A stretch of 64,000 nt of DNA from Chitinophaga pinensis (GTDB taxonomy: Bacteria > Bacteroidota > Bacteroidia > NS11-12g > UBA955). The notes beneath the pieces were generated by a model. The model had not been told where the DNA came from, searched no databases, and worked only from the letters and a program-made list of their open reading frames with translations. The DNA lies in contig CAMDAF010000006.1 of NCBI GenBank assembly GCA_945888525.1, forward strand, positions 19,489 through 83,488, given 5' to 3'. Of the stretch, positions 3,451-56,182 are shown in pieces. The position numbers and the translations under genes were made by a program. The number at the start of each line of letters is the position of its first letter. The stretch's first letter is position 1.

Positions 3451-3668
3451 ACCCCTATGGGGTTAAATCCTGAAACGCTTACTGCAACGAAGTGAAGCGT
3501 TCTCACGAGCTCGCTAGTAACTTAGCGTCAGCGTTCTCACGACCAGAGGGAGTACACCAACAAAATGTATCCATTTTAGCATTCGTTTTAATCAAGCATC
3601 ATCGAAAAACTACCCCCTAAACGCTAGACCCTATCCCCTAATTCATCCGTTTCCATTACCTTTGCTCC

Positions 3669-11354: not shown

Positions 11355-11362
11355 TATCTTTG
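11355..11362 (+). promoter_or_regulatory. -7 promoter element TATCTTTG upstream of gene 11372
   Basis: It matches TAnnTTTG 10 nt upstream of the ATG. Confidence 0.3.
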
Positions 11363-15177: not shown

Positions 15178-16080
15178 ATGAAACATCTAATAATTCTCTG
15201 CTTCTTTGCTATCACATTTGCAGCCTCTGCAATGCCAAATGATTCTATCGGAACTAAAACAGTTGACGGTAAACTTTACATCTTGCACAAAGTGAGCAAG
15301 GGTGAGGGCGTTTATGGAATCGGGAAAAAATATGGTGTTCCTGCAGCAGAAATTTTTGCGTCCAACGAAGGGTCTCAGCAATCTATTCAAATTGGACAAG
15401 TCTTGATGATTCCAAAAGGCGAATCTTCATCTTCTTCAAGCAGCACCGCACAAGTAACAAGCACAAGCACCAAAACAGAAAAGGTTTACCATACAGTTGC
15501 GAAAGGTCAAACACTTTCTTTAATTGCAAAAACACACAACACCACCATTACAAAAATTAAGGACATGAACAACCTTAAGTCAGATAATATCCAATTGGGT
15601 CAAAAATTGGTGGTAGGCGAAAAAACAATCACAGTGGCCACAACAGTAAAACCGGCTGCGCCTTCTAAACCAATAGCCAAACCAGCCGCAGCTGTCGAAA
15701 CCCCAGTTGTAAAACCAGCAGAGCACAACAATGTGGTGGTGAACACTCCAATTGTTGCAGAATCGCCGCTAGCAGAAAGCCCCGGCACAATAAACACCAC
15801 ATACAACACAGACGATGGTGATGAGATTTCAGAAAAAGGAACCGCTACAATTTCTAGTGAAGGTGAATTAAGTCAAGAAAGAAGTTTTATTTTACACCCA
15901 AGTGCTAAAATTGGCACCATAGTAATGATTACCAATACCAGCAACAACAACACTGTTTTTGCACGTGTTGTTGGCAGCTGCAAAGCAGAAGATGGGGTCA
16001 TCTTAAAAATGAGTAAAACTGTAGCTGCTAAATTGGGTGTTTCTGACAACACCGAAGTTAAAGTTAGCTACGCAAAATAA
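15178..16080 (+). CDS. LysM-domain peptidoglycan-binding protein (two LysM repeats, C-terminal RlpA-like barrel)
   Basis: Signal peptide MKHLIILCFFAITFAASA. The LysM motifs are YILHKVSKGEGVYGIGKKYGV...IQIGQVLMIP and YHTVAKGQTLSLIAKTHN...LGQKLVV. The track start at 15085 is TTG. Confidence 0.65.
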   Translation: MKHLIILCFFAITFAASAMPNDSIGTKTVDGKLYILHKVSKGEGVYGIGKKYGVPAAEIFASNEGSQQSIQIGQVLMIPKGESSSSSSSTAQVTSTSTKTEKVYHTVAKGQTLSLIAKTHNTTITKIKDMNNLKSDNIQLGQKLVVGEKTITVATTVKPAAPSKPIAKPAAAVETPVVKPAEHNNVVVNTPIVAESPLAESPGTINTTYNTDDGDEISEKGTATISSEGELSQERSFILHPSAKIGTIVMITNTSNNNTVFARVVGSCKAEDGVILKMSKTVAAKLGVSDNTEVKVSYAK

Positions 16081-22765: not shown

Positions 22766-25549
22766 ATGGCAGAAATAAGATTAGGAAAAGCAGCATCGGA
22801 ATTCAATGTAAGCACGCAAACGATTATAGAAAGTTTGCAAAGGAAAGGTTTTGCAATTGACAACAAACCAACGGCGAAGCTTACGGAAGAAATGTACGGC
22901 TACATTGCAGGCATTTTCTCTTCTGACAAAGAAGCAAAAGAAGAGTCTAAATCATCAGGACTTAAATTAAAAAAACGTGAAGATGTTGTCAAGGTTGAAG
23001 AATTCTTCAACAAAAAGAAAGAGGAAGAAAATCAAATTGAGGCAGAACCTGAGCCTGAGTTCTTCATAAAAAACGTTAGTTCAGAAGTAATTGCGCCCCT
23101 TGCGAAAGAAAAACCTGCACCGGTGAATAAGCCAGCTGTAGAAGTTGTAAAATCTAAGCCAATCAATGAACCTGTTGTTTTTGAAACACCTGTTGTTGAT
23201 CCTTTGCAGGAAGACAAAATTGAAAAAGCAGGTTTAACCGTCAAAGGCAAAATCGAATTGCCAAGTGCCGGTGGCAGAAAAAGAAAAGAAAACAAAGCGC
23301 CAGAAGCTGAGCCAATCATTGTATCAAAAGCGTCTGAGCCGTTGATCATCTCGAATCCAATTGAGGGAAATATTACAGACGCTCTTGCTCCAGAAATTGA
23401 TGAAAGAGAATTGGTCAAAGCCAACCTAGTTGAATTGGACGGTTTAACCATCATGGGTAAAATTGAGTTGAGGCCAGATCCAGTAATGAAGCCTAAATTC
23501 CTTACCCCGGCTGAAAAACTAAATAGAGAAAAACGCAAACGCAAGTCAGGTCCTCAAAAAGTTAACATCCAACAAGAAATCAAGGTTAACAGACCGAACT
23601 TAGGACAGAGACCTAACGAGCCTAAAAAAGAAATTACCCAAAAGGAAATTCAAGATAAACTGAAGAAGACATTAAATAAAATTGACTCTTCAGGACGTGG
23701 TAAAACAAATAAATCTAAGTTCAAAAGACAAAAGAGAGACGACCACTATCAAGCTAGAAGCGTAGAGAAAGAAAGAATGGAGCAGGAAGAGTTAATTCTG
23801 AAAGTAACAGAATTCTTAACTGCAAACGATTTAGCTAAAATGATGAATGTTCAAGTAACACAAGTCATTTCAACCTGTTTCTCTTTAGGCCTTATGGTGT
23901 CGATTAACCAACGTTTAGATGCTGAAACCATTACCCTTGTGGCTGATGAATTTGGATTTGAAGTTGAGTTTGTTGATGCCCAAGACACCATCGCAATTGA
24001 TGAGGAACAAGATGATCCAGAAAAAACCATCCCACGTCCTCCTATTGTGACCGTTATGGGTCACGTTGACCATGGTAAAACTTCCCTATTGGATTATGTG
24101 CGCAGTGCCAACGTAATTGCTGGTGAAGCAGGTGGTATCACCCAACACATTGGTGCTTATGAAGTACAATTACCAAAAGGACAAAAAATAACTTTCCTAG
24201 ATACACCTGGTCACGAAGCCTTTACCGCTATGCGTGCCCGCGGTGCTAAAGTAACCGATATAGCTGTTATTGTAATTGCAGCAGATGACAACATCATGCC
24301 TCAAACGCGTGAAGCAATCTCTCACGCTCAAGCAGCAAATGTACCAATGATTTTTGCCATCAATAAAATAGATAAAGATGGTGCCAATCCTGAGAAAATA
24401 AGAGAAGAACTATCTGCCATGAACATTCTTGTAGAAGAATGGGGTGGCAAATTCCAAAGCCAAGAGATTTCAGCCAAAAAAGGTTTGAACATCGACAAGC
24501 TTTTAGAAAAAATATTGTTAGAAGCTGAACTCCTTGAGTTGAAAGCAGACCCAGAAAGAAAAGCAAAAGGCACCATTGTTGAAGCCCGTCTTGACAAAGG
24601 ACGCGGTGTTGTAGCAAGTGTTTTGATTCAAACTGGAACCTTAAGAGTTGGCGACCACCTAGTTGCTGGTTCTCATTATGCAAAAGTGAAAGCTTTGTTT
24701 AACGAAAGAAACCAGAGGGTTGAGTTTGCAGGACCATCAACACCCGTTAGTATGCTTGGTTTCTCCGAAACCCCATCTGCAGGTGATCCACTAAATGTAT
24801 TGCCTACTGAAGACGAGGCAAAAGACCTAGCAAACAAACGCGAACAATTGATGCGCGAACAAGGCATCAGAACAACCAAACATATTACCCTCGACGAGAT
24901 TGGAAGACGTCTTGCTATAGGTAACTTCAAAGAACTTAACCTAATCATAAAAGGTGACGTAAATGGATCAGTTGAAGCATTAAGCGATTCGTTGCTAAAC
25001 CTATCCAATAAAGAGGTTATGGTTAAAGTAATTCACCGTGGTGTCGGTCAGATCACAGAAAGTGATGTATTGTTAGCCTCTGCCTCAGATGCAATCATCA
25101 TCGGTTTCCAAGTTAGACCAAGTTCTAGCGCCAAGAAAATTGCTGAAACTGAACAAATTGATATCAGACACTATTCGATTATTTACCAAGCCATTGACGA
25201 AATCAAGTCGGCTATAGAAGGCATGTTAAGTCCTGAAATCAAAGAAACCATTATTGGTAACGTTGAAGTTCGTGATGTGTTCAAAATTACCAAAGTTGGT
25301 ACAATCGCAGGTTGTATGGTTACTGAAGGTAAAGTTACCAGAAATGCTAAAATCCGCTTGATACGTGATGGCGTTGTTGTACACCAAGGTTCGTTAGACT
25401 CTTTAAAACGTTTCAAAGACGATGTAAAAGATGTAGTTAAAGGCTTTGAATGTGGTATCTCTATTAAGAACTTCCAAAACATCGAAGCTGGCGACAACAT
25501 AGAAGTCTTCGAAGAAACATCAATCGCTAGAAAATTAGATTCTCTTTAA
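22766..25549 (+). CDS. infB: Translation initiation factor IF-2
   Basis: The 927-aa protein has the G-domain motifs [17 protein letters not shown] and NKID, and an IF-2 C-terminal domain. Confidence 0.95.
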
Positions 25550-30304: not shown

Positions 30305-30336
30305 TAGTACGATGCTTTTTTTGCAAATATACTAAA

Positions 30337-31035
30337 TTAATTGATTGCTTGGCATAGAGCAAACACCTGAACTTTCTTAATGCCTATTTCTTTTAACAAG
30401 GTGGCACAAATTTCCAAAGTCGAGCCAGTGGTAATCACATCATCTACCAATGCTACCCTTTGAAAAGGGCAAGACAATTCAGGATTTATTTGATAGGATT
30501 GTACCGAAGAAGCCCAACGGTCAAAACGCTTCTTCCGGGTCTGAGATTCTGCATTTTCTTTCCTTAGAATAAAATGGTCAAGAAAAGGGATTTCGAGCGC
30601 CTTAGCCATACCCCTTGCAATGGCTGCAGCTTGATTAAACCCTCTGGTTTTAAGTTTATCGGGATGCAGAGGCACCGCACAAATGCATTCAGGCAAGTTC
30701 AATAACTTATTGGATTTCAAATCAAGCCCATACAAATACCCCAAATACTCCCCTAAGGCTTCATTGCCCTTATACTTTAAGCTGTGCATCAACTTTTGCA
30801 CCATGCCTTTTTTGACAAAATACAACCAGGCATCCGCAGCATCTATAGGCACTCTTCCCACAAATAGTTTATACACCGAATTATCATCAGTAGAAACAAA
30901 ATTGGTCTTTGGCAACTGCAGCTCGCAGTAGAGACAAAAGTGCTTTTCAGCATGCTGCATCGGCTTGTCGCATGCAGGACAAATGTTTGGATAAAACAAA
31001 TCGATTAAATCTCTCAGAAATAAAAATGCCTTCAT
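30337..31035 (-). CDS. comF: ComF family phosphoribosyltransferase-domain protein
   Basis: The N-terminal zinc finger is CPACDKP...CLYCELQL. The PRTase motif is VALVDDVITTGSTL. Confidence 0.7.
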   Translation of the reverse strand: MKAFLFLRDLIDLFYPNICPACDKPMQHAEKHFCLYCELQLPKTNFVSTDDNSVYKLFVGRVPIDAADAWLYFVKKGMVQKLMHSLKYKGNEALGEYLGYLYGLDLKSNKLLNLPECICAVPLHPDKLKTRGFNQAAAIARGMAKALEIPFLDHFILRKENAESQTRKKRFDRWASSVQSYQINPELSCPFQRVALVDDVITTGSTLEICATLLKEIGIKKVQVFALCQAIN

Positions 31036-31098
31036 AGTTTATGTAAAGTTACAAAAAACTATGAAGGCAAAAAATCGTTTTTTTTACAAAAAAATGAC

Positions 31099-33000
31099 TT
31101 AAGGCATATTGGCCTTTAACTTCATTAAGAAACCAATTTCACTTTCCTTAAGAAATCTCCACTTACCTCTTGGCAAATCTTTCTTTGTAAATATACCCAT
31201 GCTTACGCGGTCAAGTCTCTCAACATCGTAACCCAAATGTTCAAACATTCGTCTTACGACACGGTTTTTACCACTATGGATCTCAATGCCTACATTGCGT
31301 TTGTCTTCGTTGTCAACAAAGGCAACTGCATCAGCATGTACAACGCCATCTTCCAATTCAATACCTTCAACCAATTTATCCAAGTCGGTTCCACTTACTT
31401 TCTTATCCAATACGGCGTGGTAAACTTTCTTAATTTGGAATGATGGATGCGTTAAGGCTTGCGCCACATCTCCATCATTGGTTAGCAACAATACACCTGT
31501 TGTATTTCTGTCCAAACGACCAATTGGGTATACCCTTTGAGGGATTTTATCGGCCAATAAATCCAAAACCGTTTTACGTCCTTTTTCGTCATCTGTGGTC
31601 GTTATAAAATCTTTTGGCTTATTCATTAAAATGTAAACAAATGGCTCGGGTAAAATTTTTCTTCCGTCAAATTTAACCACATCCCCTTTCTTTACGCGGT
31701 GTCCCATTTCTGTCACAACCGTGCCATTGATATTTACCAAACCTTGTTTGATCACATCATCAGCCTCTCTTCTGCTGCAAACACCAGAATTGGCAATATA
31801 TTTATTCAAGCGAATGTCATCGGGACTGTCTTGGGTACCCGTTAATTCCTTCTTTCTATCTGAGTATGATTTTCTAATTTGAACCTGCGGATCGTATTTT
31901 GGTCTGAATGGCTTACTTTCTTCACCCTCTGGTTTAAAAGGTCTTTTTGGTCCTTGATCATCTGCATTTCTGCGGTAGTTGTTGGATTTTCCAGCATAAG
32001 AACTGTCTCGGCTATCGCCTTCTCTCTTTTGATAAGGCGCTTTGCCGTCAGCATTGCGGTCGAAACCAGGCTTTTTATAGCCCCCTTCGCTTGATTCTCT
32101 TTTTTTGTAAGGCGAATATCCACCGCCTTGATCACCTGATTTAGAATAAGCTGACTTTTTATAGCCCCCTTCTTCTGAAGCACCTTCGCGCTTTTTGTAT
32201 GGAGAGTATCCGCCACCATCGTTAGATCCAGGTTTCTTGTATCCACCATCTCGGGCGCTGTCTTCTCTTTTCTTATATGGCGCTCTGCCGTTGCCATCTT
32301 CTGAATTTCTTGGGTAACTTGGTTTCTTAAAATCAGAATCTCCATATCCACCTTCCCGTTTTTTGAACGGAGGTCTGCTTCCACCATCTTCAGATGTTCT
32401 TGGGTAACTTGGCTTTTTGTATCCTGTATCTCCAAACCCTCCTTCTTTCTTTTTGTATGGGGGTCTGCTTCCGCCTTCTTCTGAATTTCTTGGATAGCTT
32501 GGTTTCTTAAAATCAGAATCTCCATATCCACCTTCCCGTTTTTTGAACGGAGGTCTGCTTCCACCATCTTCAGATGTTCTTGGGTAACTTGGTTTTTTGT
32601 ATCCTGTATCTCCAAACCCTCCTTCTTTCTTTTTGTATGGAGGTCTGCTTCCACCTTCTTCAGAATTTCTTGGATAGCTTGGTTTACGGGTATCTGAGTT
32701 AAATCCTCTATCTTCACGGTCGCTGCCATATCCCCTGCCAGCTGGTTTTACTCCTCGGCTATCAGGACTTTTGCGGCCATATGGTTTATTGCCATCGCGA
32801 GGAGGCAAGAAACGGGGCGGTGCTAATTCATTTGAATCGTCATTGGTTCTTGGTTTTTTGAACGAAGAATCTCTTCCTCCAAATTTCGAATTTGAATCTG
32901 AACGGCCGGCAGTTTTTTTATAAGAAGCAGCTGGCTTTCGACCATCTGATTTCTTAAAGGGTCCTGAAGACTTTCCCGAGTTATTTTTACGTAAAGGCAT
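31099..33000 (-). CDS. rluB: RluB-family 23S rRNA pseudouridine synthase with ~390-aa N-terminal K/R/G/Y/P-rich tandem-repeat extension
   Basis: The C-terminal half carries an S4 domain (IRLNKYIANSGVCSRREADDVI) and an RsuA/RluB catalytic core (LDRNTTGVLLLTNDGD). The N-terminal half consists of KKPSYPRNSEEGGSRPPYKKKEGGFGDTGY-type repeats. Confidence 0.75.
   Translation of the reverse strand: MPLRKNNSGKSSGPFKKSDGRKPAASYKKTAGRSDSNSKFGGRDSSFKKPRTNDDSNELAPPRFLPPRDGNKPYGRKSPDSRGVKPAGRGYGSDREDRGFNSDTRKPSYPRNSEEGGSRPPYKKKEGGFGDTGYKKPSYPRTSEDGGSRPPFKKREGGYGDSDFKKPSYPRNSEEGGSRPPYKKKEGGFGDTGYKKPSYPRTSEDGGSRPPFKKREGGYGDSDFKKPSYPRNSEDGNGRAPYKKREDSARDGGYKKPGSNDGGGYSPYKKREGASEEGGYKKSAYSKSGDQGGGYSPYKKRESSEGGYKKPGFDRNADGKAPYQKREGDSRDSSYAGKSNNYRRNADDQGPKRPFKPEGEESKPFRPKYDPQVQIRKSYSDRKKELTGTQDSPDDIRLNKYIANSGVCSRREADDVIKQGLVNINGTVVTEMGHRVKKGDVVKFDGRKILPEPFVYILMNKPKDFITTTDDEKGRKTVLDLLADKIPQRVYPIGRLDRNTTGVLLLTNDGDVAQALTHPSFQIKKVYHAVLDKKVSGTDLDKLVEGIELEDGVVHADAVAFVDNEDKRNVGIEIHSGKNRVVRRMFEHLGYDVERLDRVSMGIFTKKDLPRGKWRFLKESEIGFLMKLKANMP
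31830..32830. repeat. Coding tandem repeats (180-nt unit, two near-identical copies plus degenerate copies) inside the rluB-like 5' half
   Basis: Nucleotides 32290-32470 and 32470-32650 are nearly identical. The purine-rich repeats also keep a second frame open (track ORF 31842-32729). Confidence 0.7.
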
Positions 33001-33169
33001 TGAACTTGCAAAGATAATACTTTATACAACCCTTATAGCAATAATACAACACAAATCTTCATCAATTTCTGTGCTATTCCCGTATATTTAATCCCTTATT
33101 TATCAATCACATCGAAAATACCTGCATTTTTATGAGCATAATCATTCAAGTATTTAAACTTAATTGCAT

Positions 33170-55979: not shown

Positions 55980-56182
55980 TCTTACAAAGATAATTAAAAC
56001 TTAAGTTATAATATTAGACAAGTAAAAATGAAAAAAGCTGCAGGAATGATAAAAACTTTTTTAACAACCCCATTGTTTAAAAACAGCTGCTTCAAAGTCT
56101 TACAAGATGGATTTTAGCCAAGAAAAGCAACAAGTTTTATTGAATACGGTTAAATGCTAAATTTAAATTAATTTCGTACCCA

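Follow-up and report, generated by a model that had tools for sequence, protein, structure and literature searches.

A pseudouridine synthase gene of Bacteroidota with a long, repeat-built and positively charged N-terminal tail

The gene and the enzyme it encodes

The DNA considered here is a stretch of 64,000 nucleotides (nt) from contig CAMDAF010000006.1, assigned to Chitinophaga pinensis and referred to below as the window. Its minus strand carries, at positions 31099-33000, an open reading frame (ORF) for a protein of 633 amino acids (aa). The ORF list, Pfam matches and public orthologues together mark this ORF as a complete gene in which an N-terminal extension, predicted to be disordered, precedes an S4 domain and a pseudouridine synthase core. 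The extension (residues 1-395, 31816-33000) is characterized by predicted disorder, by composition and by its ratio of nonsynonymous to synonymous substitution rates (dN/dS). It is followed by the S4 RNA-binding domain (residues 397-442, 31675-31812; Pfam PF01479, 45 bits against a cut-off of 22.8), which lies directly N-terminal to the catalytic core PseudoU_synth_2 (residues 456-588, 31237-31635; Pfam PF00849, 78.6 bits against a cut-off of 26.8). Alignment to the structures of Escherichia coli RluB and RluF places the catalytic aspartate at Asp497 within a GRLD motif (31510-31512) and the active-site tyrosine at Tyr527 (31420-31422). The protein stops at the catalytic core and has no C-terminal tail.

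By the Pfam boundaries, the folded module occupies only the C-terminal 238 aa (residues 396-633) and is preceded by 395 aa of extension. This agrees with a preliminary description of the locus, made from the DNA letters alone, in which the S4 and synthase module was confined to the last ~240 aa. A look-up of the exact window protein returned no matching contig; its nearest public form is P0001, which differs at one of 633 residues by having G83 in place of V83. The closest genomes are metagenome-assembled genomes of uncultured freshwater Bacteroidia, such as that of locus L003 (isolate ME2004-05-19), whose protein is 98% identical. Judged by these sequence comparisons, the ORF is confirmed as a real rRNA pseudouridine synthase gene whose product bears a repeat-built, positively charged N-terminal tail of 395 residues.

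The family to which the enzyme belongs is clearer than its individual identity. It passed the model for the RsuA/RluB/RluE/RluF family (TIGR00093, 156 bits against a cut-off of 109.3), and both D497 (in IGRLDRNTTG) and Y527, which align with RluB residues D110 and Y140 and with their RluF counterparts, are invariant in 56 homologues. The preliminary description had named the enzyme RluB. However, it missed the RluB equivalog (NF007976, 119.7 bits against a cut-off of 290) as well as the RluF equivalog (NF007784, 158.4 bits against a cut-off of 318), and the RluF score was the higher of the two. Comparison with sequences in the PDB gave the same order, with 136 bits for E. coli RluF and 112 bits for RluB. 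The basis for the difference in specificity between RluB and RluF is not evident from sequence (Czudnochowski et al., PMC3919597). Several close public orthologues are annotated as "23S rRNA pseudouridine2605 synthase", a label that is the product of automated annotation. The identification as RluB was therefore not established, and the sequence scores assign the window protein to the RsuA/RluB/RluF family at the family level only.

Start site and translation of the extension

The consensus of the -7 promoter element in Bacteroidota is TAnnTTTG. A box of this type, TATCTTTG, lies on the minus strand at 33009-33016, 8 nt upstream of the ATG of the synthase gene. Of the untruncated loci designated L001-L022, 21 of 21 have the same box at a distance of 6-15 nt before the orthologous ATG, and these loci include species whose proteins are only 54-60% identical. 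Over the window as a whole, the 8-mer shows no excess by itself (96 matches, with 90 expected). It does occur within 45 nt upstream of the first ATG in 20 of the 50 long window ORFs, where random positions would give 1.4, and box and ATG are most often separated by 4-9 nt in window genes. Examples lie at 11355-11362 and 3657-3664 on the plus strand and at 55985-55992 and 30324-30331 on the minus strand.

This enrichment, combined with the short gaps, indicates that genes of this genome typically have a short leader or none, and the synthase gene fits the pattern. The arrangement implies that many mRNAs of the organism may be leaderless or nearly so, and that the synthase mRNA would itself be near-leaderless and begin at the extension. 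A scan for sigma-70-type promoters and terminators returned no more sites than expected from shuffled sequence, a result that fits an organism with promoters of another type.

An obvious concern with an extension of this size is that it might not be translated. The 1.2 kb upstream of the S4 domain could be noncoding or form a separate ORF, with the enzyme starting at an internal codon; the preliminary description had pointed to a possible internal methionine near residue 390. Between codons 65 and 398 there is no in-frame ATG, GTG or TTG, so that translation cannot start at a point that would give a shorter product and leave the S4 domain intact. The in-frame TTG at codon 398 itself, which together with the unusual length of the protein is what might recommend an internal start, lies inside the invariant R397-L398-N399 sequence that begins the S4 domain. 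No TAnnTTTG box is present on the coding strand inside the extension, and the box at the upstream ATG is found in close and distant orthologues alike. Nine orthologues with 87-53% identity also share the N-terminus MP(L/Q)R(K/N)NN. Compared with three species-level relatives (L001, L002 and L004; 360-393 aligned codons), the extension gave dN/dS values of 0.052-0.058 versus 0.013-0.026 for the catalytic part, at dS values of 0.77-0.91. Such values point to strong purifying selection on the extension, in the annotated frame, among close relatives. An internal start is thus scarcely credible and is effectively refuted by the orthologue N-termini, the position of the box, the dN/dS values and the gap in start codons. 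Comparative evidence of this kind shows the extension to be translated and under purifying selection, and the long ORF and its ATG are correctly annotated.

A second frame is also open through much of the extension, at 31842-32729 on the minus strand (295 aa in the ORF list). In codon shuffles of the extension, the mean longest open stretch in this frame was 208 codons, and stretches of at least 295 codons arose in 12.6% of the shuffles. More distant orthologues have open lengths of only 101-192 codons in the same frame. The only public "protein" in this frame is P0135, a metagenome protein of 292 aa whose first ~140 residues match the tail before it continues in the +1 frame, which is that of the window ORF. 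P0135 is a frameshifted orthologue, and its existence means that the open second frame yields false gene products wherever an assembly contains a frameshift. As a functional gene the second ORF was rejected on all three counts; it is spurious and already public as a pseudo-product, and the frame is open owing to amino-acid and codon composition. The preliminary description was correct that the frame exists. Its proposal that this frame accounts for repeat variation remaining in frame did not survive, because the repeat units are 90 and 180 nt long and preserve the frame for that reason.

Repeats, composition and turnover of the tail, and its surroundings

The repeats were resolved at two scales. 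Tandem Repeats Finder reported a 180-nt period (2.2 copies, 96% identity, 32293-32685) and an underlying 90-nt period (4.4 copies, 75% identity). At the protein level, residues 105-254 consist of five 30-aa units of the form KKPSYPR(N/T)SE(E/D)GGSRPP(Y/F)KK(K/R)EGG(F/Y)GD(T/S)(G/D)(Y/F), of which units 1 and 2 and units 3 and 4 make up two 60-aa copies of two half-units each. The first of these 180-nt copies, unit A (residues 105-164, 32509-32688), and the second, unit B (residues 165-224, 32329-32508), are the same at 173 of 180 nt, in keeping with the near-identical pair of 60-aa units, accompanied by degenerate copies, in the preliminary description. Of the seven differences, three change the first codon between R and K, and the remaining four are silent third-position changes, so that 59 of 60 residues are identical. 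Decomposition into units and the 90-nt period place a fifth 30-aa unit (residues 225-254) and a series of degenerate GGYKK/YSPYKKRE units (residues 255-345) at 31966-32328. All of these units lie on the minus strand.

The number of units differs between relatives. Species-level relatives have proteins of 574-663 aa, mostly through gain or loss of whole units, and the cluster at 90% identity contains forms of 573, 632, 633, 637 and 663 aa. Differences within the cluster amount to -60 aa, +30 aa and a 4-aa DRNA microduplication (-180, +90 and +12 nt), all in frame. The 12-nt microduplication, DRNA to DRNADRNA, occurs in the degenerate repeats of L003 (window equivalent ~32058-32061) and appears to be a second, smaller kind of tandem expansion in the tail. 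A deletion of exactly 180 nt, which yields the 573-aa form, is present in three separate assemblies (L081, L082 and L083) whose divergence from the window is only 0.2-0.6%. Every 573-aa form stems from a short-read assembly (two of the three contigs bear k141 names), so repeat collapse is conceivable; given that the longest stretch identical between the two 180-nt units is ~95 nt, collapse was not forced.

Differences of this kind might suggest a contingency tract that switches or tunes expression, and the preliminary description had called the region possibly phase-variable. The presence of 573-, 633- and 663-aa forms in one 90% cluster and the exact deletion in three nearly identical assemblies would be compatible with such a tract. 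With units of 90 and 180 nt inside the ORF, however, every observed variant keeps the frame and the gene cannot be switched off. The units are also much longer than classical slippage tracts, the gene encodes a housekeeping rRNA-modification enzyme, the shortest forms may be assembly artifacts, and the second open frame is a by-product of composition. We therefore judge phase variation to be very improbable. The alignment of orthologues proposed in the preliminary description did find repeat number to vary, always in frame, and the differences are best read as a length polymorphism.

The tail is predicted to be disordered. In an AlphaFold2 model built with a 56-sequence alignment, residues 1-378 have pLDDT values of 35-48 and lack secondary structure, a short helix spans residues 379-386, and residues 395-633 (S4 and catalytic domains) are folded with pLDDT mostly 70-93. 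The tail is rich in K (13.9%), R (9.6%), G (14.9%), S (12.4%), P (10.6%) and Y plus F (10.6%), with ~2% aliphatic residues and a grand average of hydropathy of -1.89. Its isoelectric point is 9.84 and its net charge is +35 (55 K, 38 R, 34 D and 24 E; charged fraction 0.38). The 42 Tyr and Phe residues are spaced by 8.9 +/- 3.7 residues, with a coefficient of variation (CV) of 0.42 versus 0.90 in shuffled sequences, and none of 2000 shuffles was as regular; the regularity is due in part to the tandem repeats themselves. There are no RGG motifs in the tail and only three RG dipeptides. The resemblance to eukaryotic RGG/YG-type regions drawn in the preliminary description is compositional at best and the RGG label is loose. 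The tail is more accurately described as a K/Y/G/P-rich polyampholyte.

Within this low-complexity context, two segments are strongly conserved. The first is NELAPPRFLPPR (residues 57-68, 32797-32832, minus strand), in which 10 of 12 residues, including a PPRFLPP core, are invariant in nine proteins down to 53% identity. In all sequence searched, the pattern EL[AT][PA]PRF[LI] occurred 17 times and each time in the synthase gene, namely in the window, in 13 species loci and in three near-identical strain contigs; no other gene in the same sequence set contained the ELAPPRF motif. This segment may be a docking site for a partner. The second is the linker before the S4 domain, KPFRPKYDPQVQIRKSYSDRKKEL (residues 363-386, 31843-31914, minus strand), which includes the predicted helix and is mostly invariant among close orthologues. 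A KPFRPKYDP...RKKEL segment immediately preceding S4 is common to the nine orthologues, a KPFRPKY-like motif is found in 46 of 120 homologues, and in a diverse set of 56 homologues that includes Bacteroidales the conservation of Y369 is 90% or higher. AlphaFold2 gave no confident docking of the conserved motifs on the folded domains.

A long N-terminal domain had been regarded in the preliminary description as exceptional for an RluB protein. In Bacteroidota it is the rule. All 117 homologues that could be parsed, from the best 120 of more than 8000 candidates, have a tail of 114-395 aa before a module of ~236-241 aa, and two of them carry ~70-90 extra residues after the core. The set includes a Bacteroides eggerthii protein of 480 aa (P0077) and Prevotella proteins of 392-492 aa (P0119 being the 392-aa form). 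We also considered 80 species-representative loci, mostly labeled Bacteroidota and drawn from Chitinophagaceae, Flavobacteriales, Saprospiraceae, Mucilaginibacter, Saccharicrinis, Cryomorpha and others. Nearly all have an N-terminal tail of 32-458 aa, and the C-terminal extension is about zero in all but a handful. The window tail is the longest among the best 120 homologues but not among the species loci, where longer ones were found in L001 (425 aa, with a promoter-supported start) and, as ORF-based estimates, in L042 (400 aa) and L064 (458 aa). The tail is thus an ordinary, uncharacterized lineage trait of this enzyme in Bacteroidota rather than a one-off oddity.

The repeat units themselves change from lineage to lineage. 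They include DRPKRPYEKRDxAGFN, YGDKPYGDKPYAKKS, GDSKFSGDSRKKFDDKR, GGDRPYRPRYNSEGGDRPQRSYGNNA in Bacteroides, QQGGYQPR in Prevotella, and ERKPWQDRNREGGGGY. Within each lineage group, K/R, D/E, Y/F and P are present in broadly comparable amounts. Over deep time the tail reaches dN values of 0.5-0.9, versus 0.08-0.14 for the core. The preliminary description had suggested rapid evolution, which holds on this time scale only and not among close relatives, where selection is strongly purifying (dN/dS 0.05-0.06). What is retained in the tail is composition, position and a few short motifs, and not the sequence.

The tail alone, searched with phmmer against 1.84 billion cluster representatives, gave three matches, of which two are S4/pseudouridine synthases and one is a fragment of a frameshifted orthologue. 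We therefore rejected the tail as a portable domain on other families, at least as one detectable by sequence. A separate observation concerns P0136 (608 aa, a public representative), a more distant S4/pseudouridine synthase with ~330 aa of ERKPWQDRNREGGGGY-type N-terminal repeats, in which Trp is the aromatic residue, and with an acidic C-terminal tail as well. In P0136 the same architecture has been invented independently, from a different repeat.

The neighbors of the synthase gene are unrelated housekeeping genes. A gene for a ComF-like phosphoribosyltransferase lies downstream on the same strand, and genes for a fatty-acid desaturase and a peroxiredoxin lie upstream and are transcribed divergently; a Calx-beta protein with a type IX secretion sorting tail and an aconitase are also encoded nearby. 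Between the synthase stop codon (31099-31101) and the ATG of the ComF-like gene (31035-31033), RNA folding predicts a 14-bp hairpin followed by a U-run, UUUUUAUUU (31027-31069, minus strand), whose 3' arm contains that ATG. The 101-nt fold of this region has a free energy of -26.2 kcal/mol (z = -5.7), and in the hairpin loop stands TAACTTTAC, which closely resembles the -7 promoter box. L001-L004 keep the hairpin and show one compensatory exchange of a T-A for an A-T pair, and in L005 and L007 the downstream ATG is likewise enclosed by an analogous hairpin. The structure is likely a terminator. It also looks as though the promoter of the next gene resides in the hairpin loop, in which case read-through RNA would hide the start codon of the ComF-like gene.

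Two other window proteins have low-complexity segments. Initiation factor IF-2 (927 aa, 22766-25549, plus strand) has ~340 K/E/P/A/V-rich N-terminal residues before its IF2_N domain, which makes it a further translation-related protein of the window whose long N-terminus is biased in composition. The second, a LysM-domain protein of 300 aa (15178-16080, plus strand), contains a P/A/K/V-rich linker.

Possible roles of the tail and related systems

We consider it probable that the locus produces, from a near-leaderless mRNA, one polypeptide in which an enzyme of the RsuA/RluB/RluF family is joined to a disordered tail that serves as a putative nonspecific RNA tether or chaperone for the precursor of the large ribosomal subunit (pre-50S). 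Translation would begin at the ATG at 33000 and yield a single product. Tandem duplications of 30- and 60-aa units that preserved the frame would have built up the tail, which would still be gaining and losing units. Its Lys and Arg residues could contact the rRNA backbone while the evenly spaced Tyr and Phe residues stack on bases, which would make the tail a nonspecific and multivalent RNA-binding element. In this manner the tail might keep the enzyme bound to unfolded rRNA of the pre-50S particle as the S4 and catalytic domains locate their target stem-loop, and it might aid local RNA folding on assembly intermediates. RNA binding by the tail is plausible; we infer the tethering of RNA, the modified site and any role of NELAPPRFLPPR.

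This proposal draws on what is known of the E. coli enzymes. The C-terminal tails of E. coli RluB and RluF are ~40 residues long, are predicted or observed to be disordered, and are dispensable for binding of the isolated stem-loop (PMC3919597). RluB associates with pre-50S particles (PMC11912913; PMC11194073). In the Bacteroidota enzymes the C-terminal tail is missing and a tail is found instead at the N-terminus, beside the S4 domain. The simplest reading is that both kinds of tail perform the same job, and the window tail may then be an enlarged N-terminal counterpart of the basic E. coli tails.

Several points weigh against an RNA tether or chaperone. When RluB was re-expressed in E. coli lacking ten rRNA modification enzymes, there was no detectable effect on assembly (PMC11194073), so an assembly role for the tail cannot be carried over from that organism. 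With its 58 acidic residues, the tail cannot be regarded as a simple polycation. The strong conservation of NELAPPRFLPPR points to a specific partner, for which a tether offers no explanation. Low AlphaFold2 confidence is only an indirect pointer to disorder, and RNA binding by the tail is itself something that we infer.

Two other explanations concern the tail as a whole. It might be a scaffold that forms condensates, with aromatic stickers separated by charged, G/S/P-rich spacers, such that RNA-dependent phase separation gathers the enzyme near nascent rRNA, possibly along with further factors of ribosome biogenesis, in the manner of the glycine- and arginine-rich domain of fibrillarin in nucleoli. 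The even spacing of the 42 Tyr and Phe residues would suit such a scaffold, although that spacing is partly a product of the tandem repeats. A polyampholyte with net positive charge would also be appropriate, as would a composition that persists across lineages despite sequence turnover, and there is a precedent from the same phylum in the Rho protein of Bacteroides thetaiotaomicron (BtRho), whose inserted disordered region phase-separates and is described as condensing with RNA (Krypotou et al. 2023, as given via PMC10284900; PMC13269538). The absence of RGG boxes and the range of tail length speak against a scaffold, since many lineages manage with very short tails. Pseudouridine synthases that act on rRNA are usually low-abundance enzymes, which argues in the same direction. 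We rate this explanation as a minor possibility.

Alternatively, most of the tail could be tolerated low-complexity sequence generated by slippage or unequal recombination, with function restricted to a short, conserved basic segment beside the S4 domain. A 14-fold range of length over the phylum, repeat units peculiar to each lineage, indels of 60, 30 and 4 aa among near-identical strains and species, and the lack of detectable homology beyond close relatives are what such sequence would produce. Tolerated sequence would hardly show dN/dS of ~0.05 over 360-393 aligned codons or contain invariant internal motifs, and some tail of similar composition is present in essentially every Bacteroidota orthologue examined. 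We find this account a little less probable than a condensate scaffold. The most far-reaching proposal extends the scaffold idea: the tail would drive RNA-dependent condensation into a nucleolus-like bacterial micro-compartment, NELAPPRFLPPR would recruit a partner, and the number of repeat units would tune the threshold between strains. This combination is doubtful and ranks lower again.

Whichever role applies, a housekeeping rRNA-modification enzyme of a whole phylum carries a long tail that is under selection and predicted to be disordered, and in which the sequence turns over but composition, position and a few short motifs are kept. Disordered regions of bacterial proteins are increasingly tied to function, and BtRho provides a precedent within the phylum. 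The synthase could provide a second system, with close strains and species that differ by whole repeat units, in which to ask whether such a region acts as an RNA tether, an RNA chaperone or a driver of condensates in ribosome assembly. Should the tail prove to organize ribosome biogenesis by condensation, the interest would be considerably higher. A near-identical protein and thousands of tailed homologues are already in public databases. What deserves notice is the N-terminal position, size, repeat turnover and phylum-wide conservation of a disordered basic tail on an RNA-modifying enzyme; a search of open full-text literature found no description of the tail, which does not prove that none exists.

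Among known systems, the nearest are E. coli RluB (psi2605; PDB 4LAB, 4LGT and 9CL9) and RluF (psi2604; PDB 3DH3 and 2GML). They share the S4 domain and core, the GRLD aspartate and the active-site tyrosine, and they likewise have a disordered, basic and poorly conserved tail (PMC3919597). The tails of the E. coli enzymes are C-terminal and ~40 aa in length, whereas that of the window protein is 395 aa long, N-terminal, repeat-built and aromatic-rich, with no C-terminal tail. Bacteroidota orthologues such as P0077 and P0119 have the same low-complexity tail before S4, rich in Y/F and in G or K/R, and share the YDP motif that precedes S4, but their repeat units are unrelated in sequence to those of the window.

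More distant parallels exist in eukaryotes. Fibrillarin/Nop1, in which an N-terminal glycine- and arginine-rich (GAR) domain is attached to an rRNA methyltransferase, and the tails of Gar1 and dyskerin in H/ACA ribonucleoproteins are disordered regions rich in glycine and basic residues that bind RNA nonspecifically. They resemble the window protein in pairing rRNA modification with a disordered region, a likeness that concerns possible mechanism and not family membership. GAR domains consist of RGG boxes and have no homology to the window tail, which has no RGG and more K than R. Within the phylum, BtRho is similar in being a conserved RNA-handling enzyme with a long, charged, disordered region that contains short conserved charged motifs. 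It differs in being another enzyme, in which the disordered region is inserted and includes a KE-rich subdomain, whereas the window protein has an N-terminal array of Y/K/G/P repeats; condensation is shown for Rho (Krypotou et al. 2023, via PMC10284900; PMC13269538) and is conjectural for the window tail.

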